Origin: Clostridia bacterium
GTDB lineage: Bacteria; Bacillota; Clostridia; Oscillospirales; CAG-272
Direction: 5' to 3'
Assembly: GCA_017451045.1 (NCBI GenBank)
Contig: JAFSSK010000098.1
Span: forward strand, 14,561 to 78,560
Length of the DNA: 64,000 nucleotides
Shown: positions 1,758 to 63,421 of the stretch, one piece after another
How the letters are laid out: every line of letters begins with the position of its first letter
How positions within the stretch are numbered: position 1 is the stretch's first letter
The notes under the pieces: model-generated
What the model saw: the letters and a program-made list of their open reading frames with translations, nothing else
Databases searched by the model: none
What the model was told of the DNA's origin: nothing
Translations under genes and position numbers: made by a program

Positions 1758-1862
1758 TCGAAGAGTAAGAATCCGGGCGTAAAGTGCAGGCGGAACGGGG
1801 AGTTGTCCGCCTGACGAAAAAACCAAAAGGTTTTGCGGTCCGTTTTCTGCATCCCGCTTCAT
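1758..1862 (+). promoter_or_regulatory. THF (tetrahydrofolate) riboswitch aptamer
   Basis: Matches the remembered THF-I aptamer almost block by block: GAAGAGUAAG..GCGUAAAGUG..CAGGCGG-AACGGGGAGUUGU-CCGCCUGACGAA..GCGGUC..UGCAUCCCGCUUC. The P1 (GAAGAG/CGCUUC) and P3 (CAGGCGG/CCGCCUG) pairings are intact. It lies directly upstream of a folate ECF S-component gene. Confidence 0.85.
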
Positions 1863-1952: not shown

Positions 1953-2555
1953 ATGAATCATGAAAACGATCAAATCGAACAGGAACAGTCCCAGGATAAG
2001 ACACCGTCGGGCCGCGACACGTTCAAACGGGATCTGAAACTGTTCGGAAACGTTAAAGTCCTTTGCGTTTCAGCCCTGCTGTGCGCCCTGACGTTCGTCC
2101 TGGCGTTCGCAGCGAAACTGATCCAGGGGACCAGTCCTTTGCGCTTCACCATCGAGGGACTGCCCATCATCCTATCGGGCATTCTTTTCGGGCCGCTGAT
2201 CGGCGCCGTCATCGGCGTCGGGTCCGATCTTCTGTCCTGCGCCCTGTCCGGTCAGGCCATCAATCCGCTGATAACGGTCGGCGTCGCCTGCATCGGGCTT
2301 CTGGCGGGACTGATCAGCCACTATATCAGGACAAAGCCGGGACTTCTGCAGATCATCCTCTGCGAATCCGTCTCCCACCTGGTCGGGTCGGTCGTCATAA
2401 AGTCCGTCGCCCTGCACACGTACGGGTACGAATGGGCCTATCTTGCGCTCAGGATTCCCATCTATATCGGCGTCATTGTCATCGAAAGCATACTGCTATA
2501 TCTGCTCCTGCAGAGCAAGATCATCCAGAAAGAGATAAGGAGGTTATACTCATGA
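1953..2555 (+). CDS. folT: ECF transporter S component, folate family
   Basis: 200-aa polytopic membrane protein of ECF S-component size and hydrophobicity pattern. It is preceded by a THF riboswitch and overlaps folC by ATGA. Confidence 0.75.
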   Translation: MNHENDQIEQEQSQDKTPSGRDTFKRDLKLFGNVKVLCVSALLCALTFVLAFAAKLIQGTSPLRFTIEGLPIILSGILFGPLIGAVIGVGSDLLSCALSGQAINPLITVGVACIGLLAGLISHYIRTKPGLLQIILCESVSHLVGSVVIKSVALHTYGYEWAYLALRIPIYIGVIVIESILLYLLLQSKIIQKEIRRLYS

Positions 2556-3823
2556 CGATAGCGGAAACCATGTCATACATCCATTCGGTGGAATGGCGGG
2601 GCTCCAGGCCGGGCCTGGAGAGGATCGGTCATCTTCTGCACGCCATCGGCGATCCGCAGAAAGGCATGCGGTTCGTCCACGTCGCGGGAACGAACGGGAA
2701 AGGATCCGTCTGCGCCATGACCGAATCGATCCTGCGCAGCGCGCATTACCGCACCGGGCTTTTCACCTCCCCGTATATATACGCTTTCAACGAGCGCATG
2801 GCAGTAGACGGCAATCCCATTTCAGACGAGGAACTGTCTGAGATCACATCTTTCATCCGTCCGTACGCCGACAAAATGGAGGACAAGCCCACGGAGTTCG
2901 AACTGGTCACGGCCATCGGCTTTGAGTATTTCAGGCGCCATAAGTGCGACGTCGTCGTGCTGGAGGTCGGCATGGGCGGCCGCCTGGACTCCACGAATAT
3001 CATCGAGGATCCCGTCGCCTGCGTCATCACGGGCATTTCAAAAGACCACACAAAGTATCTGGGGAACACCATAGCCGAGATCGCGGCGGAAAAGGCAGGC
3101 ATCCTGAAGCCGGGCGCACCCGTCGTCTTCGGCGGAGAGGATCAGGACGCCGTCGACGTCATCAGAAAGAGAGAGGACGAGATGCGCGAGCAGTATGTGC
3201 AGTTCAACCCCGCACGTCTGGAGATCCGAAGGGCGGATCTGTCCGGATGCGTTTTCGATTACCGCAGAAGGAAGGAACTCAGCATCGGCCTGGCAGGCCT
3301 TTATCAGGCGAGGAACGCGTCCGTCGTTCTCGATCTGATCGACCTTCTCAACGTCCGCGGATTCAGCATTTCCGAGGAACAGATCCGTGAAGGTCTTAAG
3401 AATGCCGTCTGGCGCGGCAGGTTCGAGATTCTTTCCAAGGATCCTCCGCTGATCTATGACGGCTCGCACAACCCGGAAGGGATCGGCGCCGCCGTGGCCA
3501 GCATCGGGCACTATTTCCCCGGGCAGAAGATCCATCTGCTTACCGGCGTGATGGCGGACAAGGACTTTGAGCTGATGGCGAAAACACTGGCGCCCGTCGT
3601 CTGTGACGCCGTTACCGTCCGCCCGGACAACCCGCGGGCCCTCGACGCGAAGGACCTGGCTGACGTCTACCGCCGGGAAGGCGTTCCCGCCAGGCCGGCA
3701 GCGGACATAAAAAGCGCCGTTCGGGACATTCTCGCGGCTGCCGCCGAAGACGGGAATCCGGCCTTCGCACTCGGGTCTCTCTATATGTACGGAGCGATCA
3801 AGGACGCCGTTTTGGAAAAATAA
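2552..3823 (+). CDS. folC: Folylpolyglutamate synthase / dihydrofolate synthase (Mur ligase family)
   Basis: Begins MTIAETMSYIHS..RPGLERIGHLL and carries the P-loop 'HVAGTNGKGS'. RBS AAGGAGG at 2537-2543. The longer 2063 start in the ORF track runs in an alternative frame through folT and is rejected. Confidence 0.9.
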   Translation: MTIAETMSYIHSVEWRGSRPGLERIGHLLHAIGDPQKGMRFVHVAGTNGKGSVCAMTESILRSAHYRTGLFTSPYIYAFNERMAVDGNPISDEELSEITSFIRPYADKMEDKPTEFELVTAIGFEYFRRHKCDVVVLEVGMGGRLDSTNIIEDPVACVITGISKDHTKYLGNTIAEIAAEKAGILKPGAPVVFGGEDQDAVDVIRKREDEMREQYVQFNPARLEIRRADLSGCVFDYRRRKELSIGLAGLYQARNASVVLDLIDLLNVRGFSISEEQIREGLKNAVWRGRFEILSKDPPLIYDGSHNPEGIGAAVASIGHYFPGQKIHLLTGVMADKDFELMAKTLAPVVCDAVTVRPDNPRALDAKDLADVYRREGVPARPAADIKSAVRDILAAAAEDGNPAFALGSLYMYGAIKDAVLEK

Positions 3824-4812: not shown

Positions 4813-4833
4813 GGCTGCTCCTCCGCACCTGTA

Positions 4834-37358: not shown

Positions 37359-37395
37359 GTTATGTCCTCCGTAAAGAGCTTGCCCGAGGAAAGGT

Positions 37396-40300: not shown

Positions 40301-41889
40301 TCGTCATATCCGATCTCCCATGCGCCGTACCCGCGGAAGCCGTTCTTCAGGATCTGAAAGCGCATCGGCTCCTTCAGAAGTTCAATCCCGTTTTTCTTGT
40401 CAAAGATCGAGGCGACGTCTCCGTTTTCGTCCAGGCTGACGCGCAGGATCCCGTTGTCAAGGACACGTTCCGAAACTGTCATGCCGGCGGCGTCTGCCGT
40501 CCCCGCTCTGAATGTATATACCGCATATCCGTTCCCCGGCACTGCCGCCCGGAAGAGGATATCGGCATAAAGCTTTCCGTCCCTTCTGTCCGTCGAGAGC
40601 ACCTGCACGGGCTGCTCGTCACCGTCTGCCCCGCAGGCCGTGATCCGTTCGGGGATCTTCCCTTCCGGCCAGCATATCCTTGCGCTGACCGTGTCCGTGC
40701 GGTCGAATCCGGCGGGATTGAAAACGACGGCGCAGCCGCCGCCTGCCCCGGCGGTATCCACCTGCTCCGCCACGGCGGTGAGCGCGTTCGAGATCATCCC
40801 GTCCAGGCGGTTGTTCACGACGATGTCGTCGTGGAAGGTCTCCCTGTACGCGCGCTGGCAGCTGGTGCCGGTCAGGTCGTCATGGAACTCGTGCCTGATA
40901 AAGTCGACCCAGGCCCGGCGGATGTCTTCGGCGGGATAATCGATCACGCCGATCCAGGATCCTAAAACGCTGAACCGCTCCGCGGCGTCTGCTTTCAGCT
41001 CGTTGGACCGGTGGAAGCGTTTGGTAGGCCCAACGGATGTGTAGCTGCCGACGCCGTGAACCACCATCAGCAGCTCCTCGTTGACGGAAGGAAGTTTTGC
41101 CGCCTCATCGGGCGTCAGTTCGTCCGCCAGCTGACCGGCGTAGGCGGAAACGACTTCGTTCATTCCGTCTTCCGTCAGGACCCCCTCGTTGACGAACCTG
41201 GCGGACGCGTCTGTCGGCGCGCCGCCTATGTCGCCCGTCCCGTAATACCGCATGTCACGCTCGAGCGGGAGGGCCTCCACCATATCGTGAAGGTCTTTGT
41301 TTTCTGCCGGGTTCTCTTTGAGGCTGTCCCCGTACGGACCCGGGTCGATCGAGGCGATGACCTCGCTCCCGTCTATCCCTTCCCAGCGTCCCACATGGAA
41401 CGGGGGCGGATATCCGTTGTTCCAGGTCAGTTTCTGAGAGGAGAAGGCCACAAGGCCCATATGCTTCATCAGGGTCGGAAGCGTCCACGGGAATCCGAAG
41501 CAGTCCGGCAGAAAGATGTCGTTGCTGATCCTGCCGAACTCCTGATCGAAGAACCTGTTCCCGTAAAGGATGTTGCGCATCAGTGTCTCCGGTTCCGGCG
41601 TCACGACGTCCCCGTTCTCCCAGGAAGATCCTGTCACGTGCCATCTCCCGGCCGCAACGTATTCCTTGAGCTTGCTGAAATACTCGGGGTAATACTCCTT
41701 GATCAGCGCGTACCTGTAGGCGCCCTCGAAATTGAACGCGTAATGCGGATAGTTCTCAAACAGCCTGAAGTTTTCAAGACACGTCGAAGGCAGATACTCC
41801 TTGATCGTCTGCTCCAGGGTCCAGTTCCAGACCGTATCGAGGTGAGCGGTCGCGACCTGGTATACTTTCGGTTTCTTTCTGTTAGCCAT
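37396..41889 (-). CDS. GH38 alpha-mannosidase (1497 aa) with a C-terminal F5/8 type C (discoidin/CBM32-like) domain and further extension, no signal peptide
   Basis: 'ATAHLDTVWNWT', 'WENGDVVTPEPETLMRNILYG' and 'IRHEFHDDLTGTS' are GH38 motifs. 'RVTDGRNDTCWKAS..GYLILDLGRRLRFSHVVI' is discoidin-like. Confidence 0.8.
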   Translation of the reverse strand: MANRKKPKVYQVATAHLDTVWNWTLEQTIKEYLPSTCLENFRLFENYPHYAFNFEGAYRYALIKEYYPEYFSKLKEYVAAGRWHVTGSSWENGDVVTPEPETLMRNILYGNRFFDQEFGRISNDIFLPDCFGFPWTLPTLMKHMGLVAFSSQKLTWNNGYPPPFHVGRWEGIDGSEVIASIDPGPYGDSLKENPAENKDLHDMVEALPLERDMRYYGTGDIGGAPTDASARFVNEGVLTEDGMNEVVSAYAGQLADELTPDEAAKLPSVNEELLMVVHGVGSYTSVGPTKRFHRSNELKADAAERFSVLGSWIGVIDYPAEDIRRAWVDFIRHEFHDDLTGTSCQRAYRETFHDDIVVNNRLDGMISNALTAVAEQVDTAGAGGGCAVVFNPAGFDRTDTVSARICWPEGKIPERITACGADGDEQPVQVLSTDRRDGKLYADILFRAAVPGNGYAVYTFRAGTADAAGMTVSERVLDNGILRVSLDENGDVASIFDKKNGIELLKEPMRFQILKNGFRGYGAWEIGYDDICAEPKAVVSGPAEFEVLQQGPCRIAVRVTRCCGTSKYFMTVSLDAGDDYVRIGCRVFWNEKSSLLKMAFPLSLSSETAVYDAGLGYVEREDRAPEKYEVPVHKWASMFDRDKKYNVQILNDCKYGMDKCGSTLRLTCIHTPANQFLPQTRQDLQDQGENVFSVAVRGAAGDYNESLADQAGVRFNQPLMAVETNAHPGVLPASFSLLRVNDPGIAVKAIKKAEDTNEVIVRVCESFGRDHEDVVITAAQGILCAKETDGYERKIGPAELRNGELHFSIKKFAPKTFALTLKKPAQKASRKVYEQLPLPAGEKFTSCREEAGQYGLGPENTTVPRNLICAHRVCAGIPFGITEKDGELTFLRAAGQELKLPEGAKKVFLLAARDDEDGTCSLGFLPGTGTVTFGVQAYDDDIGGWDQYGSGHLGWIREDRVAMSFSHTHDKTGDRVYGRFAFYQYEVVVPAGAGKIVLPEDEHLMIAAISSTKQQGYARLATDIALHKKKYAEYTVRADGARGTGTYHEGGPVCLAYDGEADGRTVWTGADGSRYEGASIMFLMPAFDISFSVKNTPYARNLSRGCAVMAKNSQEGFEAQRVTDGRNDTCWKASAGGSGYLILDLGRRLRFSHVVIRHAECLCRDSIRNTDTYRIQCLQNGQWADIAGRRNNKLPVTTDTFAEQLARFLRILIDVPTGSSSDSVAMIVAVDVYSDRAEDCGEPDEPVSAYDITDTCSGEDILFQQKVSPGEKFSFASPVIVRHWSLQGADEAALTLKDSGGRTFKDAGRDVLGRGMVDRVIPEFSAIAGEIAFKGKEPSELIVTGNSMAVKTLFSYQADQYVGTRHPNPVRKEDGCVVLAAAGGGRSHDLYGNRVPFQAGYMTLCIKLRIPEKELAQASDDTPIFRFDPVFGKEYKDAKVFTVADYKKATRDTEGFRLLKETVYSEQEGQRGEMRIANERTLTLEVKSLAGYAGKHE

Positions 41890-41973: not shown

Positions 41974-42807
41974 TTATTCTTTCATAGCCGCCATGATCTC
42001 CTGCGAGAGAGTGAAACCGAACGCCTTGGCCAGTTCGATGAAATCGTCCCGCGTGATCGTCTGCGTCTTTTTGTCTGTCATAGAGCGTACTTTTACGTAG
42101 ATCTCGGCGCTCTTCTCGACCGTGTGGGCCAGGCCGAACGTGGCGTCGAACGTGTCGCCGGAACAGAAGATGCCGTGGTGCGCCCAGACGGCGACGTCAT
42201 ATTTCTTCATCTTCTCGGACGTCGCAACCGCGATGTCCTTTCCGCCCGGGACCATCCACGGGATGACGCCCACGCCCTGCGGGAACACGACGGGGCATTC
42301 CGTCATGGACTCCCAGAGTTCTTTCGTGAAAACGGCGTCGTCCATCGGGAGGACGAACGTCATGGCGATGATGTTGGCCGGGTGGCAGTGATAGATCACC
42401 CGGTGCTTGCCGCCCGTGGCGGCCATCTTCACGGCGTGATTCATCAGATGGGAGGGCAGTTCGCTCGTCGGTCTTCCGCCTGTAGAAAATCCCCAGACGG
42501 TCCTGTACTGCGTTCCGGTCCCGTCGATCTGGATGATGCCGCAGGTCTCGGCGGGTTTTTCCAGAACGTTCTGGAAATACTGTCCCGTTCCCGTCACCAT
42601 GAAATAGGTATCGGCTAGCGTCGGGACCTCGGTCCCGATGGCCGTGAAAGGTCTGTCAAAAGAAAGCTGATCCCTGATCTCGGCGATCTCCTCCTCCCGG
42701 ATCCGGTAGGACAGGTTGCCGCCGTTCCGCTCGTGGAAGCCAAGCCTGAATCCGTCGTCGGCCAGCTTGCAGAATGATTTTACGAATGATGCCTCTGTAA
42801 CTTTCAT
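41974..42807 (-). CDS. rhaD: Rhamnulose-1-phosphate aldolase (class II aldolase)
   Basis: 'HERNGGNLSYR', 'FMVTGTGQYF', and the His-rich metal site 'HCHPAN..'. It follows rhaB-rhaA. Confidence 0.85.
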   Translation of the reverse strand: MKVTEASFVKSFCKLADDGFRLGFHERNGGNLSYRIREEEIAEIRDQLSFDRPFTAIGTEVPTLADTYFMVTGTGQYFQNVLEKPAETCGIIQIDGTGTQYRTVWGFSTGGRPTSELPSHLMNHAVKMAATGGKHRVIYHCHPANIIAMTFVLPMDDAVFTKELWESMTECPVVFPQGVGVIPWMVPGGKDIAVATSEKMKKYDVAVWAHHGIFCSGDTFDATFGLAHTVEKSAEIYVKVRSMTDKKTQTITRDDFIELAKAFGFTLSQEIMAAMKE

Positions 42808-42819
42808 GTCCCCTCCAGT

Positions 42820-44067
42820 TTACTGTCTCTTGGACAGAACTTTCTGCTCGTATTCCTTCACCTGCGCGTACCACTCCTCTGCGCACGGCACGCCGCAGCG
42901 GCGGCAGTATTCGTCCCAGACTGCCTCCATCGGGTACGTCTTGTACTCTTCCTGAAGGACCAGCACGTCCGTGAATTTCCCTTCGTTCTGCAGTTTCGCA
43001 AGTTCCTTGTGGGGCGTCAGGAGCGCGGATAGCAGCGCCTTGCGGACGTTGCGCATGCCGAGCACCCAGGCCGCGACCCGGTTGATGGATCCGTCAAAAT
43101 AGTCCAGCGCGATGAGCACGTCGTCCATGCGGCCGCTGGCCACGATCTCCTTGGCGATCTCCTTCGTCTCGTCGTCATAGCGGACCACGTGGTCGCTGTC
43201 CCAGCGGACGGGCCGCGTGATATGGAGCGCGAGTTTGTCCGAAAGCAGAAGGATCGAGGAGATCTTGTCCGAGACGGTTTCTGTCGGATGGTAGTGCCCG
43301 TTGTCCATCAGCGGGACGATGCCGCGGCTCAGCACGTAGCCGAGCGTGAATTCTGCGGAGCCGGCCGTGTAGGATTCAAGGCCGATCCCGAAGACTTTGG
43401 ACTCCAGCGTGATCAGCACTTTGGATTTGTCATACCCTGCCGCGAGAATCTCGTCAAGAGATTTCATATAACGGGCGCGGGGGCCTGTGCGGTCCGCGGG
43501 CGTGTCTTTCATGCCGTCCGGGATCCAGATGTTCATCACGCAGGGGTATCCCGTCTGTTCCGCAAGATATTCCGAGATGCGCAGGCAGGCGATCCCGTGC
43601 CTGACCCAGAATTTCCGGATCTCCTCGTCTGGGCTCGTTAAGGTGAAATGCGCAGCCTTGGGATGGGAGAAGAACGTCGGGTTGAAGTCGATGCCGATGT
43701 TCCTTTCTTTGGCATAGCGCACCCAGGGCTCGAAGTGCCTGGGCTCCAGCGCGTCCCGGTCGGCCCACTCGCCCTCTTTGAAGATCGCGTAGCAGGCGTG
43801 CAGATTCAGCTTGTGTCTGCCGCCGTCAAGCGACAGGGCTTTGTCGAAGTCGTCCATCAGCTCCTGCGGCGTGCGCGCCTTCCCCGGGTAGTTGCCCGTC
43901 ACCTGGATGCCGCCGGACAGACCCATCTTCTGGTCAAACCCGCCGACGTCGTCGCCCTGCCAGCAGTGAACGGATACGGTGATGTCCTTCAGCTTTTCAA
44001 GGACCTCTTCCGTGTCGATGCCGATCCCGGCGTATTTCTGTTTTGCGTATTCATACATATTTTTCAT
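42820..44067 (-). CDS. rhaA: L-rhamnose isomerase
   Basis: 'SVHCWQGDDVGGF' and 'HKLNLHACYA', about 415 aa, typical RhaA. Confidence 0.9.
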   Translation of the reverse strand: MKNMYEYAKQKYAGIGIDTEEVLEKLKDITVSVHCWQGDDVGGFDQKMGLSGGIQVTGNYPGKARTPQELMDDFDKALSLDGGRHKLNLHACYAIFKEGEWADRDALEPRHFEPWVRYAKERNIGIDFNPTFFSHPKAAHFTLTSPDEEIRKFWVRHGIACLRISEYLAEQTGYPCVMNIWIPDGMKDTPADRTGPRARYMKSLDEILAAGYDKSKVLITLESKVFGIGLESYTAGSAEFTLGYVLSRGIVPLMDNGHYHPTETVSDKISSILLLSDKLALHITRPVRWDSDHVVRYDDETKEIAKEIVASGRMDDVLIALDYFDGSINRVAAWVLGMRNVRKALLSALLTPHKELAKLQNEGKFTDVLVLQEEYKTYPMEAVWDEYCRRCGVPCAEEWYAQVKEYEQKVLSKRQ

Positions 44068-44082
44068 AACGACCCCCGTATA

Positions 44083-45468
44083 TTAAACTCTTTTAACTTC
44101 AAATGAATCGAAAACCGCCTTGCGTGCCTGCGCAAGATCCTTGAAAACGCCTGTCCCCAGCATCTGCGCCAGGATGTTGCCTATCGCGGTGGCTTCCGTA
44201 GGTCCTGCGTATACCGGCTTTCCAGTCTTTTCCGCGGTCAGCCTGTTCAGGTACCCGTCCTTGCTTCCCCCGCCGATGATATGCAGCGCGGCGATCGGCT
44301 TCCCCGTCAGGGCCTCGATCTCCTTCAGGGTCGCGTCATAGCACTCGGCCAGGCTCTGATACACCACAGCGACGCACTGCCCGACGTCAAGGTCCTTTCT
44401 GCCGAGACTTTCGCGGATCGCGTCCAGCATAGAGTCCGGCATCAGGAAGCGCGCGTCGTTCACGTCGATCCGCAGCGGGATGTCCGCGTTTTCCTCCGCC
44501 ATGCGGCAGAGATCGTCGAACGAGTACCGCCCCCCGCACTCTTTCTTGATGGACTGGATGATCCACAGCCCCATGATGTTCTTCAGGCACCTGTACCGCA
44601 TCCCGTACCCGCCCTCGTTGGTGACGTTCGCATCGTGAGAGGCTTCCGAGCAGATCGGCTGCAGACTCTCTATCCCGAGGAGGGACCACGTCCCCGAACT
44701 CAGGTATGCCACGTCGTCTCTGGACGTGGGCACGGCCAGAACGGCGGAGCCCGTGTCGTGCTCGGCCGGATGCATAACGGTCAGGTTGTATCCTACTTTT
44801 GCGCTGATCTCTTCTGTCAGCGGGCCGACCTTCGTCCCCGGCATGGCCAGCGGGCCGAACAGCCTTTCCGGGATCCCGATCTTCCGAAGAAGGTCTCTGT
44901 CCCAGTCGCCCGTCCTGATGTCGATCAGCTGCCCCGTCGTGGCGTCCGTATATTCCTGCTCCTTGATCCCCGTGAGAAGGAAGTTCAGATAATCCGGGAT
45001 CATGAGCAGCGACGCCGCCTGCTCCAGCTGCTCCGGATGGTTTTCCCGGATGGAGACCAGCTGGTATATCGTGTTGATGATCTGTTTCTGGATGCCGGTC
45101 CGCATGTACAGTTCCTTTTCGGATATGTCCCTGTACAGGATCTCGTCCATGCCGGCCGTCCGCTGATCTCTGTAGCCGACCGTGTCCCCGATGACCCGGT
45201 CGTTTTTGTCCAGAAGGACGAAATCCACGCCCCAGGTGTCGATCCCGAGGTATGACGGGCGCTTGCCCATCTCTCCCGCTTTCTTGATGCCCTCGACGAC
45301 ATGCCCGAACAGCGTCGGGACGTCCCAGCACATCGTACCGTCTTCCTTCCGAACAAGTCCGTTCGGGAACCGGTATATCTCTTCCATGCGGATCTTCCCG
45401 TCATCCAGCCAGGCGATCATGTGCCTGCCGCTGGAAGCGCCTATATCGATCGCAAGATAGTAAGTCAT
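44083..45468 (-). CDS. rhaB: Rhamnulokinase (FGGY family)
   Basis: 'YLAIDIGASSGR', 'GIDTWGVDFVLLD' and 'HIIGGGSKDGYLN'. The start is at MTYYLAID (ATG 45468). Confidence 0.9.
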   Translation of the reverse strand: MTYYLAIDIGASSGRHMIAWLDDGKIRMEEIYRFPNGLVRKEDGTMCWDVPTLFGHVVEGIKKAGEMGKRPSYLGIDTWGVDFVLLDKNDRVIGDTVGYRDQRTAGMDEILYRDISEKELYMRTGIQKQIINTIYQLVSIRENHPEQLEQAASLLMIPDYLNFLLTGIKEQEYTDATTGQLIDIRTGDWDRDLLRKIGIPERLFGPLAMPGTKVGPLTEEISAKVGYNLTVMHPAEHDTGSAVLAVPTSRDDVAYLSSGTWSLLGIESLQPICSEASHDANVTNEGGYGMRYRCLKNIMGLWIIQSIKKECGGRYSFDDLCRMAEENADIPLRIDVNDARFLMPDSMLDAIRESLGRKDLDVGQCVAVVYQSLAECYDATLKEIEALTGKPIAALHIIGGGSKDGYLNRLTAEKTGKPVYAGPTEATAIGNILAQMLGTGVFKDLAQARKAVFDSFEVKRV

Positions 45469-45548
45469 GTCTTCTCCCTTCAGCCCGTTTTCCGCCCGCT
45501 TAAGGGCCCTGCAACGGGCATATAGAGTTAAATGTATTATACACTTAC

Positions 45549-45577
45549 AATATATCACAAACATACATTTTTGTCAC
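45549..45577 (-). promoter_or_regulatory. Candidate promoter of rhaBAD-GH38-GH38
   Basis: Minus strand: GTGACA, 17 nt, TATATT with a TGa extended -10. Confidence 0.45.
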
Positions 45578-45598
45578 TACTTTTTTGCCGAGGTCCGC

Positions 45599-45627
45599 TT
45601 GCCATCCCATCCAAAACATGCTACAAT
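45599..45627 (+). promoter_or_regulatory. Candidate promoter of the GH95 gene
   Basis: TTGCCA, 17 nt, TACAAT with a TGc extended -10. It is back-to-back with the rha promoter, with 21 bp between the -35 boxes. Confidence 0.5.
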
Positions 45628-45696
45628 TTTCATGTCAGCCAGACATTTTTCTGCCGGCCATGCGGCCCGGCAGATACAGAAAGAAGGAGAACAGCC

Positions 45697-48303
45697 ATGG
45701 AATTGATGCTTCGCTATGACAGCCCCGCGCCGGACAGTGACGAAGGCTGGGAAAAATATTCCACACCCATCGGATGCGGATGGTACGGCGCCAACCTTTT
45801 CGGCGGTGTCGAACGCGACCGGATCCAGATCACTGAAAACGCAGCTGTCAATCCCTCTCACCTCGGCGGTCTGAACAGCTTCGCGGACCTGTACCTGAAT
45901 TTCCCCGGCGGAAACGTTACGGGATACAGAAGGACGCTGGACCTTTCCCGTTCGCTCGCTACCGTCCGGTATGAGAACGACGGCGTCTGGCTGGAGAAGC
46001 AGTATTTCGCTTCCTATCCCGACAGGGCGCTCGTGATCCGCGTGCGTTCCGCGGAGCCGGTCTCGTTCTCCGTGGAACTCAAGATCGCACATCTTACTGA
46101 AGAACCGGAGCGGAAAAAGGACGGCGTCGTCACAGTCGACGCGCCGAGGATCTTCATGAGCGGCAAGATGCATGCGATCGGATACCGCTTCGCGGCGGTC
46201 GCCACGGTCCGCTCAGACGGAACGGTCAGCAACGGGGATAATGTTCTCTGCGTCAACGGCGCGACAGACACGGACATCATCTTCTGCGGGGCGACGAACT
46301 ATGAACTGCGCCCGGAAGTCTTCCTGGAAGACGATCCGCAAAAGAAACTGCGCGACTTCGATCCGATGCCGCAGGCTCTGCAGCTCGCAGAGGCCACGAC
46401 CGCATATACGGCGGACGAGCTGCTGCAGCGCCATGTGGAAGATTATCAGACGATATTCGGCCGCGTGAGCCTGTCGCTGGGAGACGAAGAGATCCCGGGC
46501 GTCCCCACGGACAAGCTGCTCGAAGCCTACTCGAAAGGCAGCCGCAGCAAGTACCTCGAGGTCCTGTATTTCCAGTTCGGCAGATACCTTCTGATCTCCT
46601 CGTCAAGACCCGGAACGCTTCCTGCAAATCTGCAGGGCGTGTGGAACTGCCATGACCGGTCCCCCTGGGGCTCCGGGTACTGGCACAACATCAATGTCCA
46701 GATGAACTACTGGCCCGCGTTCGTAACGTCCATTCCGGAAACGTTCGAGGCCTATCAGGCCTTCTATGAGGCGTTTTTGCCGAAAACATGCCAGTTTGCC
46801 TCGGCTTTCGTCCGCGCGACCGTACCGGAAAACGCGACAGACGAACCCGGCGCGTGCGGCTGGGTCATCGGAACGGCGAACTACCCATATTCCGTATCAG
46901 GTCCGGGCGAGCATTCAGGGCCCGGGACAGGGGGTCTTACGAGCCAGCTGTTCTACGACCGTTTCGCGTTTTCCGCGAAGGACGACGATCTGCGTAAAAT
47001 AGCCCTTCCCGCCCTTTTGTCCATGGCAAAATTCTTTTTGCGCGTGGTACGCGATTACGACGGTCTCTACCTGTCCGTCTTTTCCGCTTCTCCGGAACAG
47101 ATCTTAACCTCCAACGGCTCCTGGCCGCCCGCCTACCACCATACCGTCGGCTGCGCCTTCGACCAGCAGATGATCTATGAAAACGCCAAGAACCTTCTGG
47201 ACTGCGTCAGCCGCGTAGGCGAAGAAACGCTTTCGGAGGAAGACCGCGCGATCGTTCAGGCGGTCCGCAAGCAGTTCGACCGTTACGACCCCGTCATCGT
47301 GGGCTGGAGCGGCCAGGTCAAGGAATTCCGGGAAGAAAAATATTACGGGGAGTACTGCGAGTACCGCCACAGACACATTTCCCAGCTGGTCGGCCTGTAT
47401 CCCGGGACGTCCATCTCAAGAGAAACGCCGGCCTGGCTGGATGCCGCGAAGGTCACTTTGAATCTGCGGTCTGACTTCTCGACCGGATGGGCGCTTGCGC
47501 ACCGGCTCAACGCCTGGGCGCGGACCGGCGACGGCAACCGGGCTTACCGGCTGTTCTCCAATCTGCTCGGCACCCGCACGCTGCCGAATCTCTGGGACTT
47601 CCATCCGCCTTTCCAGATCGACGGGAACCTGGGCGGCGTTTCCGGCGTAGCGGAGATGCTGGTCCAGAGCCACGAAGGCGTCATTCTTCCCCTTCCCGCC
47701 ATTCCTGATGAATGGGGCAGCGGTGAATTCAAGGGACTCTGCGCAAGAGGCGGATTCTCTCTGGACGTCCGCTGGGAAAACGGATGTGCGAAAGCCGTCA
47801 CGGTACACTCGCACGCCGGAAAACCCTGCCGGATCCGCTATCCGAGCCTTTCCAACGCAAAATTCGATTTCGGGCACCGGGTGGAGGACGCAGACACCGT
47901 CTGCTTCGATACGGAAGCGGGGCGTTCATACGAGATCCGCTCGATCCCGCCGTTCGTCAAAAAGCCGCACCCCGTTTCGCTCAAGGCGACAAGGCAGGGT
48001 GAGCTGTCCTGGGACTTCAAAGGGCCCGTGGACATCTGGCGCGCGGCAGACAGTTCCCCCGTATACGAAAAACTCGCAGGATACGTTTCCGGCGGAACGT
48101 GGCGCGTCCGGGACGATCTGTACAGCCGTTCGGAGACCGTCACGTACAAGATCACCCGAGCCGGCGAAGGGCCTTTGGCTGAAGGCGCCCGCGTCACGCT
48201 GAACCACTCGACGAAGCTGCAGCGCGAGCAGTACCGTTACCTGATCCGTCAGCTGAACCTTATCTGCGGCACTGCGGAAGCGACGGAATACCTGGGGGAG
48301 TAA
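45697..48303 (+). CDS. GH95 alpha-L-fucosidase family hydrolase, no signal peptide
   Basis: N-terminal 'W..YSTPIGCGWYGANLFGGVERDRIQITE' and 'LQGVWN..WGSGYWHNINVQMNYWPA' are GH95 signatures. RBS GAAGGAGA before ATG 45697. Confidence 0.8.
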   Translation: MELMLRYDSPAPDSDEGWEKYSTPIGCGWYGANLFGGVERDRIQITENAAVNPSHLGGLNSFADLYLNFPGGNVTGYRRTLDLSRSLATVRYENDGVWLEKQYFASYPDRALVIRVRSAEPVSFSVELKIAHLTEEPERKKDGVVTVDAPRIFMSGKMHAIGYRFAAVATVRSDGTVSNGDNVLCVNGATDTDIIFCGATNYELRPEVFLEDDPQKKLRDFDPMPQALQLAEATTAYTADELLQRHVEDYQTIFGRVSLSLGDEEIPGVPTDKLLEAYSKGSRSKYLEVLYFQFGRYLLISSSRPGTLPANLQGVWNCHDRSPWGSGYWHNINVQMNYWPAFVTSIPETFEAYQAFYEAFLPKTCQFASAFVRATVPENATDEPGACGWVIGTANYPYSVSGPGEHSGPGTGGLTSQLFYDRFAFSAKDDDLRKIALPALLSMAKFFLRVVRDYDGLYLSVFSASPEQILTSNGSWPPAYHHTVGCAFDQQMIYENAKNLLDCVSRVGEETLSEEDRAIVQAVRKQFDRYDPVIVGWSGQVKEFREEKYYGEYCEYRHRHISQLVGLYPGTSISRETPAWLDAAKVTLNLRSDFSTGWALAHRLNAWARTGDGNRAYRLFSNLLGTRTLPNLWDFHPPFQIDGNLGGVSGVAEMLVQSHEGVILPLPAIPDEWGSGEFKGLCARGGFSLDVRWENGCAKAVTVHSHAGKPCRIRYPSLSNAKFDFGHRVEDADTVCFDTEAGRSYEIRSIPPFVKKPHPVSLKATRQGELSWDFKGPVDIWRAADSSPVYEKLAGYVSGGTWRVRDDLYSRSETVTYKITRAGEGPLAEGARVTLNHSTKLQREQYRYLIRQLNLICGTAEATEYLGE

Positions 48304-48367: not shown

Positions 48368-49141
48368 CTACCATTCGACTGCCGTTTCAAAAGTCTTCCC
48401 GAAGAATTCCCGGGCTTTTTCAACGGCAGCCCTGTCGGGCGGCAGCATTTCCTTATATGCATATTCTCTGCCGAGCGCTTCGTATTTTGCGGCGCCCAGC
48501 CTGTGGAACGGGAGAAGGTCTACATGACGGATGCCAGCCGCCGCCATCAGTTCCGCCATTTTTGAAAAACTATCCTGTGAAAGATTGAATCCGGGGATCA
48601 GGGGGATCCTGGCATGTACGCAATCTCCCCGCGCCACAAGACGCTGCAGGTTGCTTTTTATCAGCTGCAAATCGCCGCCGATCACGTCGCGACACAAGTC
48701 TTCATCCGCGGTTTTGACGTCGAAGTAATACATCTGGATCAGTCCGTCGAGCTTCTCAAAAGACTGCCACGGGACGCACCCGGCCGTATCGACCAGCAGT
48801 GGAATTCCTCTTTTACCAAGGGCCGCGGCCAGCTCCGCGACGCTTTCCGGGTGCAGCATGGGCTCGCCTCCGCTGACGGTCACGCCTCCGCCGTCCGCAC
48901 GGTAGAAATCTGTGTCTTCCGCGAGTTCTTCGACGAGCTGCCCGATTTCCGTCTCTTTTCCGTATAGCACGGTCTTCCCTGTCGCGCGATAGGTCAGGGT
49001 TTGCGGCCGGGCGTCGATGTTTTCAGGGTTGTGACACCACGGGCAGTGCAGATTGCATCCCTTTAGGAACACGGTGGTGCGGATGCCCGGACCGTCCCCG
49101 ACGGAAAACCGCTGGACGGATGATACGAACAGCGTCATCAT
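48368..49141 (-). CDS. Glycyl-radical enzyme activating protein (radical SAM, minimal PflA-like architecture)
   Basis: 'VQRFSVGDGPGIRTTVFLKGCNLHCPWCHNPE'. At 257 aa it has no ferredoxin-like CxxCxxCxxxC insert. ATGA overlap with the GRE gene. Confidence 0.9.
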   Translation of the reverse strand: MMTLFVSSVQRFSVGDGPGIRTTVFLKGCNLHCPWCHNPENIDARPQTLTYRATGKTVLYGKETEIGQLVEELAEDTDFYRADGGGVTVSGGEPMLHPESVAELAAALGKRGIPLLVDTAGCVPWQSFEKLDGLIQMYYFDVKTADEDLCRDVIGGDLQLIKSNLQRLVARGDCVHARIPLIPGFNLSQDSFSKMAELMAAAGIRHVDLLPFHRLGAAKYEALGREYAYKEMLPPDRAAVEKAREFFGKTFETAVEW

Positions 49142-51246
49142 ACCGCCTCGTGCTGCGTCCTGCTGAGGATGTCGTTCTGGACTTCCTTCGGCAGTATGAC
49201 GTACAGGGCCGAGAAGCCCGAAACACGGACGACGAGCGTCGGATATTTTTCCGGATGCGCGGATGCGTCCATGAGGACTTCTCTCGAGGTCGAATTGATC
49301 TGGATCTCCTGGCCGCCGCGGCTGAAATAGATGCGGATCAACTGCCTGAGTTTCTGCCGCTTTCCGTCCTGGAAGACCGACGGCGAGAATTTCTGGTTGA
49401 CGACCGTTCCGCAGGCACAGCGGGTATAGTCCGGTTTGGAGACGCTGAGCAGCGTGGCGGTCACGCCGCGCTCGTCCTTCCCGTATGTCGGGGACGCCGC
49501 GTCAGAAAGAGGCTGGCCGGCAAGTCTGCCGTCCGGGGTGGCTTTCAGGTCCTTCCCCGCATAGATGTTGGTTACGTTCGCGGCCATGGCGATGTAGTAC
49601 GGCCCGCCGTCGTACGTCCGCTTCCTGTCGAAAAGATCCGCCAGATATCCTGTGTACCAGACGGCGTATTTGTCCACGAAATCATTGTTGTTGCCGTATT
49701 TGGGCGCCGCCTTCACCAATTCATGCAGCGTTTCGAACCCTTCGAAGTTGGCGTTGATGGCGGCCGTGATATCGGAGAGCTTCGCTTTGTGATCCGTAAA
49801 CACGACCTGCTCGATGGCGGCCAGCGAGTCGCTGACCGTTCCGATGCCCATCAGCACGGCGCCGTGCGTGGACGGATATTTCGCGCCGCCCATGTTGATG
49901 TCCTTCCCGCGTTCGATGCAGCAGTCGCAGAAGCAGGACATAAAGGGGGATGTGCACATTTTCGGATCGGCAACGGCAGAAGCTCTGGAGAACCATTCCG
50001 TATATTTGTCGACACCCCAGGCAAGACGCTCCTTGTACCGTTCCATGAACGCGTCCATGGACGGGATCGCGTCCAGTTCCTCAGTAGGCGTTTTGCAAAG
50101 CACGTCCTCCAAAAACATGATCGGATCGAACCGTCCGTCTGACCACGCCGGCTGCTTCCCGGTTATGAAGTTTTCAATGCATCCGACCATGCAGTAATCC
50201 CGCACGTCCTCTTCCTCGTAACCGTACCTTCTCAAAGCCGCCATGTTGACACTGTCGTTCATCAAGGCGGGGTATCCGAGTCCTGTCCCGATGACTTTCA
50301 GGCATTCGTCCAGGAACTCGTCCGGCGCATCTTCCGGTACCCGCGCAGAAAGATTCTGGCCCGGCAGGTGCACTTCGTCGACCGCGTGCAGCACGCAGTA
50401 GCTCAGCGGATTGATGGCGCACTTTCCGTCCGGTGTCGTGCCGCCGATGCAGATGTTGATCACGTCGTATGTGCCGTCGCGGTATTTACTTTCGCCGATC
50501 TTGGCAAAGACGTTGGCAAGCAGTTCCTGCGCGCCGTCGTCCGTGAGGCGCCCGCACGCTATGTCGCTTTCATACAGGCTGTAAAGGAACTGATCGATCC
50601 GCCCCAGCGCCATGGCTCCCTTTCCTTCGCTGACGAAGCAGGTGTGGATCAGCCAGACGAGCTGAAGCCCCTGCGCAAAAGTCTGCGGAGCGTTCCACGC
50701 GATAGCTGTGCAGTTGTCCTGTATCATGCGCAGTCTTTCCGTGTCGTACCCTTCCGTTCCGATCAGTTCGCCTGCTTTCCTTGCGTAGGACAGAAGCAGT
50801 TCTCGAAACGCCAGAAGCGTGATCTTCATGCTTGAAAGATAATCGAGTTCGTCCTCGCTGTGTTGACCGTTCGCAGCCGAGCGGTCTATATGCTCCAGAA
50901 GACCCGGGATCCCGATCCGGGCAGCCGTCATGTAATCGGCCGCGAAATGATCTGCATTCGTATGGAAATTCCGTTCTTTGTGGATCTCCATCCACTTTTT
51001 TGCTTCTGCGGCTTCCGATTCGTTACTTACCATATAGAGCGGACGGATGCTGCCAACGATCAGGTCGTTTTGATAGATGAACGGTTCATATGACGTGAAA
51101 AGGGCAGCCAGCCCGTATGCGCGGCGGCGGTAAGGAGTGTCTTTCTCGTGCGCGGCGTATCCGCGCATGCGAAGCAGTTCCGGGGATAGTCTGCCGGCCG
51201 GCACCTGATCCAATTCAGTTTTCAAGGCTTCCGTGATCTTTCTCAC
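49138..51246 (-). CDS. Glycyl radical enzyme (PFL-like superfamily), 702 aa, substrate unknown
   Basis: C-terminal glycyl-radical motif 'VVRVSGFSALYV' and thiyl-loop 'YCMVGCIENF' (single Cys, Glu at +2). GTG start preceded by AAGGAGAGG. Confidence 0.85.
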   Translation of the reverse strand: MRKITEALKTELDQVPAGRLSPELLRMRGYAAHEKDTPYRRRAYGLAALFTSYEPFIYQNDLIVGSIRPLYMVSNESEAAEAKKWMEIHKERNFHTNADHFAADYMTAARIGIPGLLEHIDRSAANGQHSEDELDYLSSMKITLLAFRELLLSYARKAGELIGTEGYDTERLRMIQDNCTAIAWNAPQTFAQGLQLVWLIHTCFVSEGKGAMALGRIDQFLYSLYESDIACGRLTDDGAQELLANVFAKIGESKYRDGTYDVINICIGGTTPDGKCAINPLSYCVLHAVDEVHLPGQNLSARVPEDAPDEFLDECLKVIGTGLGYPALMNDSVNMAALRRYGYEEEDVRDYCMVGCIENFITGKQPAWSDGRFDPIMFLEDVLCKTPTEELDAIPSMDAFMERYKERLAWGVDKYTEWFSRASAVADPKMCTSPFMSCFCDCCIERGKDINMGGAKYPSTHGAVLMGIGTVSDSLAAIEQVVFTDHKAKLSDITAAINANFEGFETLHELVKAAPKYGNNNDFVDKYAVWYTGYLADLFDRKRTYDGGPYYIAMAANVTNIYAGKDLKATPDGRLAGQPLSDAASPTYGKDERGVTATLLSVSKPDYTRCACGTVVNQKFSPSVFQDGKRQKLRQLIRIYFSRGGQEIQINSTSREVLMDASAHPEKYPTLVVRVSGFSALYVILPKEVQNDILSRTQHEAV

Positions 51247-51309
51247 CCTGCGGCCTCTCCTTTTGCTCTTCCGACTTCTTTCGCATCTTTTGAAGAGCGG
51301 CTTTGATTT

Positions 51310-51338
51310 ATTATATCACACTCTCATGCAACTGAAAA
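51310..51338 (-). promoter_or_regulatory. Candidate promoter of the GRE-activase pair
   Basis: Minus strand: TTTTCA, 17 nt, TATAAT with a TGa extended -10. Confidence 0.45.
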
Positions 51339-51464: not shown

Positions 51465-52502
51465 ATGAAGGATCTGCTGCCCGGCGGCGAGTTTGAAAAA
51501 CAGATCAGGAATTCACCCGCTACCGGCTATCTGCTGTTCGGAGAAGAAGACTATCTCAAGCAGCATGCGGTATCTGTTGCACGGTCCGTCCTGTGCCCCG
51601 AACCCGAATTCGCAGCGTTCAACGACATAAAGGTCGACGCCCTCGAGTTTTCTCCAGACGTTCTGCTGGACAGTATCATGGCATATCCCATGATGGCCGA
51701 CAGAAAACTGATCACGCTGACCGGCCTTCAGCCGTCGGCCATGTCGTCTTCGGAGCTTTCGCAGCTGTGCGAGGTTTTGCAGGCGCTTGAGGAATACGAT
51801 TACAACACGCTGCTCCTCGTCGTTGCCTCGGACGGACTTGATCCGGGGTATCTCCCCAAGCGTCCGTCACCCGTCCTGAGCAAGCTGGGAGAGACGCTTG
51901 TACCCGTTCGGTTCGAAAAGAACACGCCGGCGAAACTGGCCGCCTGGGTCGGCCGCCATTTCACCCATTACGGTGTGAGTGCCTCCGGCGCTTTATGCCA
52001 GAAACTGATCGACTACTGCGGGACCGGGATGTACATCCTTGCCTCGGAGATCGAAAAACTTTGCTATTACATCCTGTCTCAAGGGCGGAAAGAGGCTACG
52101 GAGGCAGATATCGAGGCGGTGGCCGTCGCCGTTCCGGAATATGATTCGTTCGCCCTGACGAACGCGCTGCTGCAGCAGAAACCGGACGAGGCGCTGCAGG
52201 TACTTCAGAAACTCAAGAGCAGCCGCACGGATCCCGTCATCATCATGGCGGAGATTGACCGCTGCTTCTGCGAACTGTGCTACGTATGCGCCATGATCAG
52301 GCAGGGGCTCACCAACAGGGAGATCTCCTCGGCCACGAACATACACGAATTCAAGATCAACATTTACAGAAAAGCCTGCTCATCGATTCCTCCCGCAAAG
52401 CTGCGAACCATCTTAGACAGGTGCAGCGAAGCGGATATCGCGCTCAAGTCTTCGGTGCAGACGGGATACTCCGCCGTCGAAAGACTGATCTGTACATTCT
52501 AA
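51465..52502 (+). CDS. holA: DNA polymerase III subunit delta
   Basis: 'YLLFGEEDYLK' N-terminus, about 345 aa, with the clamp-loader delta pattern. Confidence 0.8.
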   Translation: MKDLLPGGEFEKQIRNSPATGYLLFGEEDYLKQHAVSVARSVLCPEPEFAAFNDIKVDALEFSPDVLLDSIMAYPMMADRKLITLTGLQPSAMSSSELSQLCEVLQALEEYDYNTLLLVVASDGLDPGYLPKRPSPVLSKLGETLVPVRFEKNTPAKLAAWVGRHFTHYGVSASGALCQKLIDYCGTGMYILASEIEKLCYYILSQGRKEATEADIEAVAVAVPEYDSFALTNALLQQKPDEALQVLQKLKSSRTDPVIIMAEIDRCFCELCYVCAMIRQGLTNREISSATNIHEFKINIYRKACSSIPPAKLRTILDRCSEADIALKSSVQTGYSAVERLICTF

Positions 52503-61187: not shown

Positions 61188-62474
61188 TCAAGGTTTCCTG
61201 ATGACGTCGACCCCCAGATACTTTTTCAGCACATCTGGAACGTTGACGGAACCGTCTGCGTTCTGGTTCTGCTCGACGAGAGCCGGGAAGATGCGGCTGG
61301 TGGCAAGACCTGATCCGTTCAGCGTGTGAACGTACTCGATCCTTCCGTCCGCTCTCTTCACTCTGATCATGCCTCTCCTGGCCTGATAGTCTCTCGCGTT
61401 GGATACGGAAGACACTTCCTTATACCCGTTCATGGACGGGATGTTGATCTCGATATCGTAGGTCCTTGCCATGGAAGCCGAGCAGTCTTCGGCCGCCAGT
61501 TTGACCGTGCGGAAATGGAATCCCAGCCCTTTTACAAGGTTTTCCGCATTCTGGACAAGTTCCTCGAACGCCTCGTCGCTCTTTTCCGGAAGCGTATACT
61601 GCACCATCTCTACTTTGTTGAACTGGTGCCCGCGGACCATGCCGCGCTCGTCGGCACGGTATGAACCCGCCTCCCGGCGGAAGCACGGGGTGTATGCGAA
61701 ATATTTCTTCGGAAGATCGGACTCGTTCAGGATCTCGTCACGGTGCAGGCTCACGAGCGCTGTCTCCGCGGTGGGAAGCATGAAATGTCTCCTCTCCTCT
61801 TCGTCCTGCTTCTCGAGCCAGTATACTTCATCCTGGAATTTAGGAAACTGTCCTGCGGTGAAGCCGCATTCATAACCCAGCATATGGGGGAGAAGCATGA
61901 ACTGGTAGCCGTTTTTCGTATGGAAATCGATGAAATAGTTTAAAATCGCCCATTCGAGTCTTGCGCCCATGCCGGAATAGATCCAGTAGCCGGAGCCGGA
62001 GATCTTCGCAGCGCGCTTGTAATCGATAAGCCCGAGATCCGTGCACAGATCGACATGGTTCTTCGGTTCGAAATCGAACACCCTCTTCTCGCCGAAGTAC
62101 CGCAGGGGCTCGTTATTCTCTTTTCCGCCGCCCTTAAGGTCTCTGTCCGGCAGGTTGGGAAGGCTGAGCATAAGCGTTGAGATCTCGCCCTCGATCGTCT
62201 TGAGAAGATCGTCGTTCGCTTTCGTTTTGGAACCGATTTCCTTCATCTGTGCGAAGATGGGAGCGACGTCTTTTCCTTCCTTTTTATATTGAGGAATGAG
62301 CTTGTTCGTCCTGTTCTGCTCCGCTTTCAGAGCCTCGTTTTCAACGATGATAGCCCGTCTTTTCTCATCCAGTGCGACGATTCTGCGGATCTCCTCGGCA
62401 GCTTCCTTTCCCTTCAGGGAGAGCCGCTGGATGACTTCCTCAGGTTTTTCTTTTATATACTTGATATCAATCAT
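61188..62474 (-). CDS. serS: Serine--tRNA ligase
   Basis: 'MIDIKYIKE' coiled-coil N-arm and class II motifs 'FRREAGS', 'RGMVRGHQFNKVE' and 'TLNGSGLATSR'. Confidence 0.95.
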   Translation of the reverse strand: MIDIKYIKEKPEEVIQRLSLKGKEAAEEIRRIVALDEKRRAIIVENEALKAEQNRTNKLIPQYKKEGKDVAPIFAQMKEIGSKTKANDDLLKTIEGEISTLMLSLPNLPDRDLKGGGKENNEPLRYFGEKRVFDFEPKNHVDLCTDLGLIDYKRAAKISGSGYWIYSGMGARLEWAILNYFIDFHTKNGYQFMLLPHMLGYECGFTAGQFPKFQDEVYWLEKQDEEERRHFMLPTAETALVSLHRDEILNESDLPKKYFAYTPCFRREAGSYRADERGMVRGHQFNKVEMVQYTLPEKSDEAFEELVQNAENLVKGLGFHFRTVKLAAEDCSASMARTYDIEINIPSMNGYKEVSSVSNARDYQARRGMIRVKRADGRIEYVHTLNGSGLATSRIFPALVEQNQNADGSVNVPDVLKKYLGVDVIRKP

Positions 62475-62511
62475 TTTGTTTGCCTCTAATTATGAATAAT
62501 TTTTTACTGTA

Positions 62512-63411: not shown

Positions 63412-63421
63412 ATTATCCTCC

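Follow-up and report, generated by a model that had tools for sequence, protein, structure and literature searches.

A compact clade of glycyl radical enzymes with a changed substrate pocket and reduced activases

Two overlapping minus-strand genes in a 64,000-nucleotide stretch of a Clostridia bacterium contig (JAFSSK010000098.1, positions 14,561 to 78,560; hereafter the window) encode an oxygen-sensitive glycyl radical enzyme (GRE) of 702 aa and a radical-SAM activase of 257 aa. Sequence comparison places the GRE in a compact clade that falls outside all characterized groups. It keeps the catalytic residues of the eliminase-like GREs and has a changed substrate pocket, and in most related loci a zinc-dependent alcohol dehydrogenase (ADH) stands beside the pair. 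The reading we favor, to which we give a probability of roughly one half, is that the pair is active and would cleave a C-O bond by 1,2-elimination in a neutral diol, polyol or sugar derivative, with the ADH handling the carbonyl. The chemistry is probably a familiar radical elimination; not previously described are its compact build, the changes in the pocket, the pairing with a dedicated Zn-ADH and the family's series of reduced activases.

The glycyl radical enzyme of the window

The GRE gene (49138..51246, minus strand) was identified from its open reading frame (ORF) and translation, Pfam, an AlphaFold2 (AF2) model and Foldseek. Pfam matches are PFL-like (E 1e-110) and Gly_radical (E 3.8e-26), and the AF2 model (pLDDT 85.9, pTM 0.88) matches about 50 GRE chains at TM 0.82–0.88, which points to the ten-stranded GRE barrel fold. 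The glycyl radical loop RVSGFSA (aa 674–680; 49207..49227, minus strand) aligns at Gly677 with Gly763 of B12-independent glycerol dehydratase (GD). The Cys loop MVGCIENF (aa 353–360; 50167..50190, minus strand) holds a single Cys, Cys356, with Glu358 at +2; together they form a CXE motif that aligns with GD Cys433 and Glu435. An earlier note on this DNA, made from the sequence alone, had recognized a GRE of the eliminase-like CXE kind by these two loops, and translation, Pfam and predicted fold agree with it. It had also put the glycyl motif near the C-terminus, which is right, at a distance of about 27 residues, where Gly677 is in fact 25 residues from the end.

Both loops are strongly conserved. 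Across 44 family members MVGCIENF is invariant, as are R674-V675-S676-G677 and S679-A680 of the glycyl loop, and F678 is nearly so. The glycyl loop fits the pattern RVSG[Y/F]SA of the benzylsuccinate synthase-type enzymes, not the RVSGYAV of pyruvate formate-lyase (PFL) (2026 review, PMC13450708), and its type may bear on activase specificity.

The gene begins with GTG at 51246, and 10 nt before it lies a ribosome-binding site, AAGGAGAGG (AGGAG; 51254..51262, minus strand), read from the sequence. Farther 5' is a sigma-70-like promoter match, TTTTCA-17-TATAAT with an extended TG (51310..51338, minus strand). The earlier note had given the pair its own promoter; the consensus match with extended TG makes this plausible, but such matches are not enriched, since the GRE region holds 3 vs. 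1.7 ± 1.2 in shuffled sequence and they are thus no rarer than chance. An Rfam scan found no regulatory RNA upstream of the GRE, its sole match in the window lying elsewhere.

The protein is 100% identical to MBQ7153100.1, labeled “hypothetical protein” by NCBI. The label is consistent with its score against TIGR01774 (PFL2/glycerol dehydratase subfamily), which is 399.9 bits against a cut-off of 678.2, with the match starting at profile position 146. Named NCBI relatives among the matches listed are also labeled “hypothetical protein”.

Short length and placement of the clade

The window GRE is shorter than the characterized full-length PFL-like GRE chains matched in the Protein Data Bank (PDB), which have 759–1150 aa; so far the earlier note was correct. 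The shortness is not peculiar to this gene. Searched against 5.8 billion proteins, the GRE had 1090 hits, of which we describe the best 120. These are 56–66% identical to the window GRE and 695–735 aa long, except for three truncated entries and one outlier of 748 aa, and they come from uncultured Clostridia, Oscillospiraceae, Christensenellaceae and Eubacteriales in gut and rumen metagenomes. When 1.84 billion cluster representatives were searched exhaustively with HMMER, the closest clusters at the 50% level proved to be of similar size, 690–726 aa, down to about 38% identity, and classical GREs of 780–800 aa started below about 36%. More distant short GREs occur in metagenome-assembled genomes of Armatimonadota, Elusimicrobiota and Lentisphaerota. 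On these comparisons we take shortness to be a trait of a deep clade spanning several phyla, not of the window gene alone. The idea that orthologs uniformly have 800 aa or more and that this copy is a deletion variant is rejected, since its relatives and the neighboring 50%-identity clusters are equally short.

A rough neighbor-joining (NJ) tree clusters the short GREs together, separate from GD, 1,2-propanediol dehydratase (PD), CutC, YbiW and PflD, with bootstrap support of 94% for the immediate family and 40% for the whole short clade. Compared with YbiW and PflD, about 56 residues are absent from the segment corresponding to YbiW 80–157 (window residues 69–92), and loops of 9–13 residues are also absent after window residues 257 and 387. 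In GREs the conserved dimer interface has its helices at the N-terminus (2026 review, PMC13450708), so an effect of the N-terminal deletion on oligomerization is possible. As a precedent for a short GRE we considered the 687-aa PDB chain 38la and rejected it: it aligns only to query residue 613 and apparently has no glycyl domain. A paper on this chain was not found.

Placement within a characterized clade, a possibility that the earlier note had kept in view, finds no support in the profile scores. Every NCBIfam equivalog reached about a third of its cut-off or less: HypD 336 bits (cut-off 1100), CutC 323 (1050), the PflD type 292 (1109), HpfG 283 (1000), HpsG 274 (1000), HPAD 243 (1150) and PFL (TIGR01255) 120.9 (994). 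With IAD included, the equivalogs for CutC, HypD, HpsG, HpfG, HPAD, IAD and PflD span 195–336 bits against cut-offs of 1000–1150, and none was reached. The top solved relatives in sequence are GD (1R8W, E 7e-96) and then the PDs 9RCO and 5I2A, and the AF2 model superposes on GD, PD, CutC, HypD and PflD at TM 0.85–0.88, with identities of 23–28%. With scores and identities this low (at most 28%), we place the window GRE outside all characterized clades.

Catalytic residues and substrate pocket

To map the active site, GD residues were carried onto the alignment used for the NJ tree. The catalytic set is kept: GD His164, Cys433, Glu435, Asp447 and Gly763 correspond to His100, Cys356, Glu358, Asp370 and Gly677 of the window GRE. 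All five are invariant in the 44 relatives and are kept in nearly all of the wider short clade. The residues that we take to contact the rest of the glycerol or propanediol molecule are GD Ser282, Tyr339, Tyr640 and Ser642, and all four differ. Ser282, also Ser in PD, aligns with Ala211; Tyr339, Phe in PD, with Val262; Tyr640, also Tyr in PD, with Ala555; and Ser642, Val in PD, with Asn557. Throughout the family the same four replacements are seen, and the wider short clade largely shares them. The comparison with GD and PD that the earlier note had proposed thus gives a kept catalytic set, including the His, Glu and Asp, and four changed pocket residues, with the glycerol-binding set Ser282/Tyr339/Tyr640 of GD absent.

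In GD, Glu435 deprotonates the C1 hydroxyl and His164 protonates the leaving hydroxyl, and the CXE motif is kept by all eliminases and isomerases (PMC13450708). Since the catalytic set and the CXE motif are kept and the pocket is changed, the alignment makes an eliminase- or isomerase-type reaction most likely, with neither glycerol nor propanediol as the substrate.

Other GRE chemistries were considered and set aside. A PFL, decarboxylase or X-succinate synthase is rejected on the loop with a single Cys and a Glu and on low model scores; the window loop reads G-C-I-E vs. C-C-V-S in PflB, with no Cys-Cys pair. A C-S lyase of the IslA/HpsG type is rejected by the lack of a conserved basic residue at the one column examined (GD 160) and by the low scores of the HpsG and HpfG models. 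For a choline lyase, the window GRE has His, Val and Asp at GD His164, Tyr339 and Asp447, the last two positions being Phe and Ser in CutC.

One position near the pocket sets the window copy apart. Its residues 209–210, aligned with GD His281 beside the substrate-binding Ser282, are Lys-Gly, and at least 90% of the 44 relatives have Arg-Tyr; Gly at position 210 is also present in several more distant members of the short clade.

Reduction of the activase

The activase gene (48368..49141, minus strand; Pfam Radical_SAM and Fer4_12) overlaps the GRE stop by 4 nt. An identical database protein has 256 aa and starts at the second Met. The radical-SAM motif CX3CX2C is CNLHCPWC (aa 29–36; 49034..49057, minus strand), and between it and the SGGE motif there is no Cys. 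The other cysteines (122, 150 and 174) form no CX2CX2CX3C motif, and no Fer4 dicluster domain is matched by Pfam; the earlier note's observation that this overlapping activase has only CNLHCPWC and no two-cluster ferredoxin insert is therefore upheld. Related activases hold a one- or two-cluster ferredoxin insert of 15–45 extra residues at a linker site where the window activase, aligned with that of locus L013, retains the remnant YRATGKTVL (about aa 51–59; 48964..48990, minus strand).

The same note had called the activase PflA-type, a description that suits its architecture and not its ancestry. It passes TIGR02494 (PFLE_PFLC; 244.1 bits, cut-off 174.35), the match falling into two parts with the insert, at profile positions of about 40–98, left out, and it fails both PflA equivalogs (TIGR02493, 160.1 vs. 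231.75 bits; NF008356, 124.4 vs. 375). Identity is 41% to the one-cluster activase of L094 and 39% to the two-cluster activase of L067 within the family, and 36%, 30% and 28.5% to PflC, YbiY and PflA of Escherichia coli. From these profiles and identities we read it as an eliminase-type (TIGR02494) activase that has lost its ferredoxin insert, and not as one derived from PflA.

Sorting the activases of the family by the distance from CX3CX2C to SGGE, and by the number of Cys in between, separates several forms. Those without an auxiliary cluster, which include the window activase (65 aa) and most loci, have 63–65 aa, rarely 72–76, and 0–2 Cys. One-cluster forms (L094, L097, L089, L068) have 78–86 aa and 4–5 Cys, and two-cluster forms (L067, L013, L081) have 105–108 aa and 7–9 Cys, with L013 matching Fer4 dicluster domains in Pfam. 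The shortest, from L084, has 49 aa and one Cys. For reference, the distances in E. coli are 51 aa in PflA, 81 aa (with four Cys) in PflC and 109 aa in YbiY. Activases paired with GREs of the same family at 46–50% identity still hold the insert. The best 120 homologs of the window activase are nearly all 254–260 aa long, a few reaching 289, and none has a Fer4 dicluster.

Mapped onto the GRE tree, 38 sequences with cluster-free activases form one clade (59% support), and two further cluster-free loci, L076 and L084, fall outside it. One-cluster forms arise at least twice, as a trio (100% support) and as L089 inside a two-cluster pair (100%). The NJ tree suggests at least five independent losses of the insert in the family. 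We accordingly interpret the cluster-free state as a repeated secondary loss, by which the PflA-like architecture reflects convergent reduction, not shared descent. Most GRE activases bear a ferredoxin domain, only those of PFL and ribonucleotide reductase (RNR) being without one, and the structure and function of this domain are unknown (2026 review, PMC13450708).

At locus L035 (1197-4724, minus strand, and 4389-6518, plus strand) a short GRE 58% identical to that of the window stands back-to-back with a distant second GRE (27%). The short GRE has no adjoining cluster-free activase and the locus holds a two-cluster activase, a layout that raises the question whether one activase serves both GREs.

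Conserved gene partners in related loci

The set of related loci comprises 97, of which 84 are unique, and partners were counted in the 58 unique loci with at least 2.3 kb of downstream sequence and in the 63 with enough sequence upstream. An activase stands beside the GRE in 52/58. A Zn-dependent ADH of the MDR type, about 364 aa long, is present in 45/58 and a SASA-family (PF03629) esterase in 17/58, and 50 of the 58 have at least one of the two. Upstream of the GRE, 19/63 have a divergent AraC-type regulator (Pfam HTH_18). The usual order is GRE, activase, ADH and then SASA if present; in L038 and L056 the esterase lies between GRE and activase. Kinases, aldolases, shell proteins and transporters are not recurrent in these loci.

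The ADH has catalytic and structural zinc motifs (read from sequence). Its best matches, all below threshold, are to threonine 3-dehydrogenase, idonate 5-dehydrogenase and scyllo-inosose 3-dehydrogenase, and its best solved match is the Thermotoga maritima protein 1VJ0. Sporadic neighbors include GFO/IDH/MocA oxidoreductases, a xylose-isomerase-like TIM-barrel protein and an SDR. Three loci (L021, L045 and L065) encode a fusion of aldo-keto reductase and 4Fe-4S dicluster domains (379 aa), which in L021 (10795-11934) directly follows a complete GRE-activase-ADH-SASA module. Two overlapping ORFs of 408 and 382 aa together make up the GRE of L016 (2519-4757), which points to a frameshift, an assembly error or a pseudogene.

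These partners bear on whether the GRE would be an isomerase like YbiW and PflD, opening a cyclic ether or rearranging a non-phosphorylated anhydro- or deoxy-sugar into a ketose that then passes to the Zn-ADH or to a GFO/IDH/MocA enzyme. The dehydrogenase is of polyol type, GFO/IDH/MocA and xylose-isomerase-like proteins do appear now and then, and the hosts are rich in glycoside hydrolases. The enzyme also shares CXE and His with YbiW and PflD, and Asp370 with PflD, and the replacement of two Tyr by Val and Ala suggests a larger pocket. We nevertheless consider this unlikely: the PflD equivalog scores 292 bits against 1109, phosphotransferase system (PTS), kinase and aldolase genes are not conserved nearby, a conserved signature for phosphate or sugar binding was not seen, and the case is one of analogy.

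The earlier note had called the window pair an orphan. This holds for the window copy and not for the family, which has Zn-ADH, SASA and AraC partners; the window copy is an atypical, stripped member without them. ADH and/or SASA are present in every one of the 14 loci with a GRE at least 62% identical to that of the window, and the nearest relatives (L046, L004, L020, L063) have GRE, activase and SASA with no ADH. Since neither gene is in the window, and since Lys209-Gly210 replaces the usual Arg-Tyr, the pair might be a decaying or non-functional remnant that has lost its dehydrogenase, esterase and regulator. That is very unlikely in our view, as both ORFs are intact and translationally coupled, with a ribosome-binding site and a promoter-like site, and retain every catalytic and cluster residue; Gly210 is shared with other short-clade members, and the partner genes could lie elsewhere in the genome.

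Proposed mechanism and significance

For an active pair performing 1,2-elimination, family chemistry suggests the following course. The single [4Fe-4S]/S-adenosylmethionine site of the activase would take H from Gly677, and the radical would move from there to Cys356. The Cys356 thiyl radical would abstract H from a hydroxyl-bearing carbon, whose hydroxyl Glu358 would deprotonate, and His100, backed by Asp370, would protonate the vicinal oxygen leaving group. A carbonyl product would result, and the enzyme would then count as a 1,2-eliminase that cleaves C-O (a dehydratase), or possibly as an isomerase that opens a ring. Since four substrate-binding positions differ from GD and PD, the substrate is probably neither glycerol nor propanediol and would instead be some other neutral diol, polyol or sugar derivative, likely of larger size. 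In most relatives a presumably co-transcribed Zn-dependent ADH of polyol type would reduce the carbonyl product or make the substrate, with the SASA esterase often downstream and the AraC regulator often upstream. In the genome of the window the pair would have become separated from these partners. The comparisons themselves establish the family, the kept catalytic residues, the changed pocket residues, the recurrent gene partners and the graded reduction of the activase; activity, type of reaction, class of substrate and the part played by the dehydrogenase are inferred from them.

Several points weigh against this interpretation. The pocket is deduced from a sequence alignment, and the AF2 model is poorly confident at residues 556–589, which line part of it. 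The His/Glu/Asp set is common to dehydratases and the PflD isomerase and cannot tell elimination from isomerization. The NJ trees are rough, with deeper nodes supported at only 40–59%. A tblastn search found no homologs of the ADH, SASA or AraC proteins in the 64-kb window, so the pathway drawn from relatives may not apply unchanged to the window copy. To our knowledge, the sufficiency of a cluster-free activase has never been tested for a GRE other than PFL and RNR. Within partial journal coverage, no biochemical data on any member of the clade and no paper on it were found in the literature.

The interest lies in the family rather than in the window copy. Gut and rumen metagenomes hold the clade in abundance, the search having found more than 1000 close relatives. 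Because the window protein and the named NCBI relatives among the matches listed are labeled as hypothetical, inventories of GRE chemistry in microbiomes likely overlook the clade, which amounts to an annotation gap. A pocket unlike that of any characterized eliminase probably marks a new anaerobic pathway by which some diol, polyol or sugar derivative is processed. Within the family, orthologous GRE-activase pairs are also available whose activases have two auxiliary clusters, one or none. Insolubility and reconstitution are the main bottleneck in GRE work (2026 review, PMC13450708), and small cluster-free activases might ease both. A stronger proposition joins an undescribed GRE reaction (elimination or ring-opening of a neutral C4–C6 diol, polyol or deoxy-/anhydro-sugar, feeding the Zn-ADH) to an activase series showing that the auxiliary clusters are dispensable; we regard it as tentative and on balance doubtful. 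The literature search, with the same partial coverage, found no paper on ferredoxin-less eliminase activases, on the dehydrogenase partner of the clade or on a GRE butanediol dehydratase.

Genomic neighborhood of the window copy

The pair is flanked by a glycoside hydrolase (GH) gene of family 95 (45532..48303, plus strand) and, beyond it, by rhaB, rhaA and a class II aldolase gene (41974..45564, minus strand); holA lies on the other side (51465..52502, plus strand). The annotated parts of the flanks hold no microcompartment, aldehyde dehydrogenase, ADH or transporter genes, which confirms the earlier note for microcompartment, aldehyde dehydrogenase and transporter genes.

From this adjacency the earlier note had drawn a link to deoxyhexose metabolism. 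In its explicit form, the GRE would be a trimmed B12-independent 1,2-propanediol or glycerol dehydratase using propanediol from the adjacent rhaBAD and GH95 rhamnose/fucose genes. The best sequence and fold matches are indeed GD and two PD structures, the His/Glu/Asp/Cys catalytic set is kept, and a GRE-activase-ADH module would suit a path from propanediol through propanal to propanol. Related locus L038, with a GH78 rhamnosidase upstream of the GRE, gives a weak second hint in the same direction. The adjacency itself stands, but homologs of the window's rhaA, rhaB, aldolase and GH95 (E <= 1e-10), as of holA and GH43, occur in 0/97 related loci, and the rhamnose/fucose neighborhood looks incidental because it is absent from all of them. 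The residues that bind substrate in GD and PD are replaced at all four far-end positions (S282A, Y/F339V, Y640A, S/V642N), identity to GD and PD in structural alignment is only about 28%, and TIGR01774 gives 400 bits against a cut-off of 678. There are also no microcompartment genes, unlike in the GRM3 and GRM5 propanediol dehydratases (PMC12756279). We therefore judge a propanediol or glycerol dehydratase quite unlikely and retain elimination on another diol, polyol or sugar derivative as the preferred reading.

Several other features of the window are recorded here. Glycoside hydrolases are numerous in it (GH38 twice, GH92, GH95, GH43 and GH2). The two GH38 alpha-mannosidase-like genes, one encoding 1497 aa with F5/8 type C domains, and the GH92 gene (34842-41889, minus strand, and 29056-31122, plus strand) suggest a cluster for mannoside or N-glycan degradation. 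The divergent rhaB (minus strand) and GH95 (plus strand) ORFs share 33 nt where their 5' ends meet (45532-45564), and the match of rhaB to the rhamnulokinase model starts at residue 37; probably at least one of the two start codons lies further in. A phosphoglucomutase/phosphomannomutase ORF (31448-33118, plus strand) has an N-terminal HTH_3 domain (Cro/C1-type) at residues 17–65 and is either an unusual fusion or the product of an over-extended start that merges two genes. A tetrahydrofolate (THF) riboswitch at 1759-1861 (plus strand; 85.8 bits, gathering score 36) precedes an ORF of 586 aa (2063..3823) by about 200 nt. GC content is 0.46 at 62001-64000 vs. about 0.58 before, and this segment adjoins parB, serS, rsmG and mnmG, which suggests that the window ends near a replication origin.

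Comparison with known systems

The closest known system is DhaB1-DhaB2-DhaT of Clostridium butyricum (PDB 1R8W/1R9D), whose GD is the best match to the window GRE (phmmer E 7e-96, TM 0.88). Equivalents of its CXE loop, His164, Asp447 and glycyl loop are kept, and the order GRE, activase, alcohol dehydrogenase recurs in most relatives. The window GRE differs in being about 85 aa shorter, with the gap of about 56 residues and several trimmed loops, in having Ala, Val, Ala and Asn for Ser282, Tyr339, Tyr640 and Ser642, and in an identity of about 28% in structural alignment. DhaB2 has the ferredoxin insert that the window activase is without. DhaT is an iron-type ADH, whereas the partner in this family is a Zn-dependent MDR enzyme.

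The PDs of Roseburia inulinivorans (5I2A/5I2G) and Raoultella planticola (9RCO-9RCR) resemble the window GRE in fold (TM 0.87) and catalytic residues. They are longer, at about 790–845 aa, and their pocket residues Ser, Phe, Tyr and Val are replaced. GRE 1,2-propanediol dehydratases are associated with microcompartments (PMC12756279), whereas neither the related loci nor the annotated parts of the window yielded shell genes.

With the isomerases YbiW and PflD, which act on 1,5-anhydroglucitol-6-phosphate and 1,5-anhydromannitol-6-phosphate (PDB 8ID7, 8ID0), the window GRE shares the CXE motif and the His and, with PflD, the Asp; we count their role in carbohydrate metabolism as a further likeness. 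Both are longer (765–810 aa), fall in a separate NJ clade and have equivalog cut-offs that the window GRE is far from reaching, and the PTS and aldolase context is missing. PflC, the activase of PflD, is the E. coli activase closest to that of the window (36% identity), and its reduced insert has four Cys, a number also found in the one-cluster forms of the family.

Like E. coli PflA (246 aa vs. 257), the window activase is a single-domain protein with the radical-SAM cluster only. Unlike PflA, to which it is 28.5% identical, it fails the PflA equivalog and passes TIGR02494, and it keeps a remnant linker of 14 residues at the former site of the insert.

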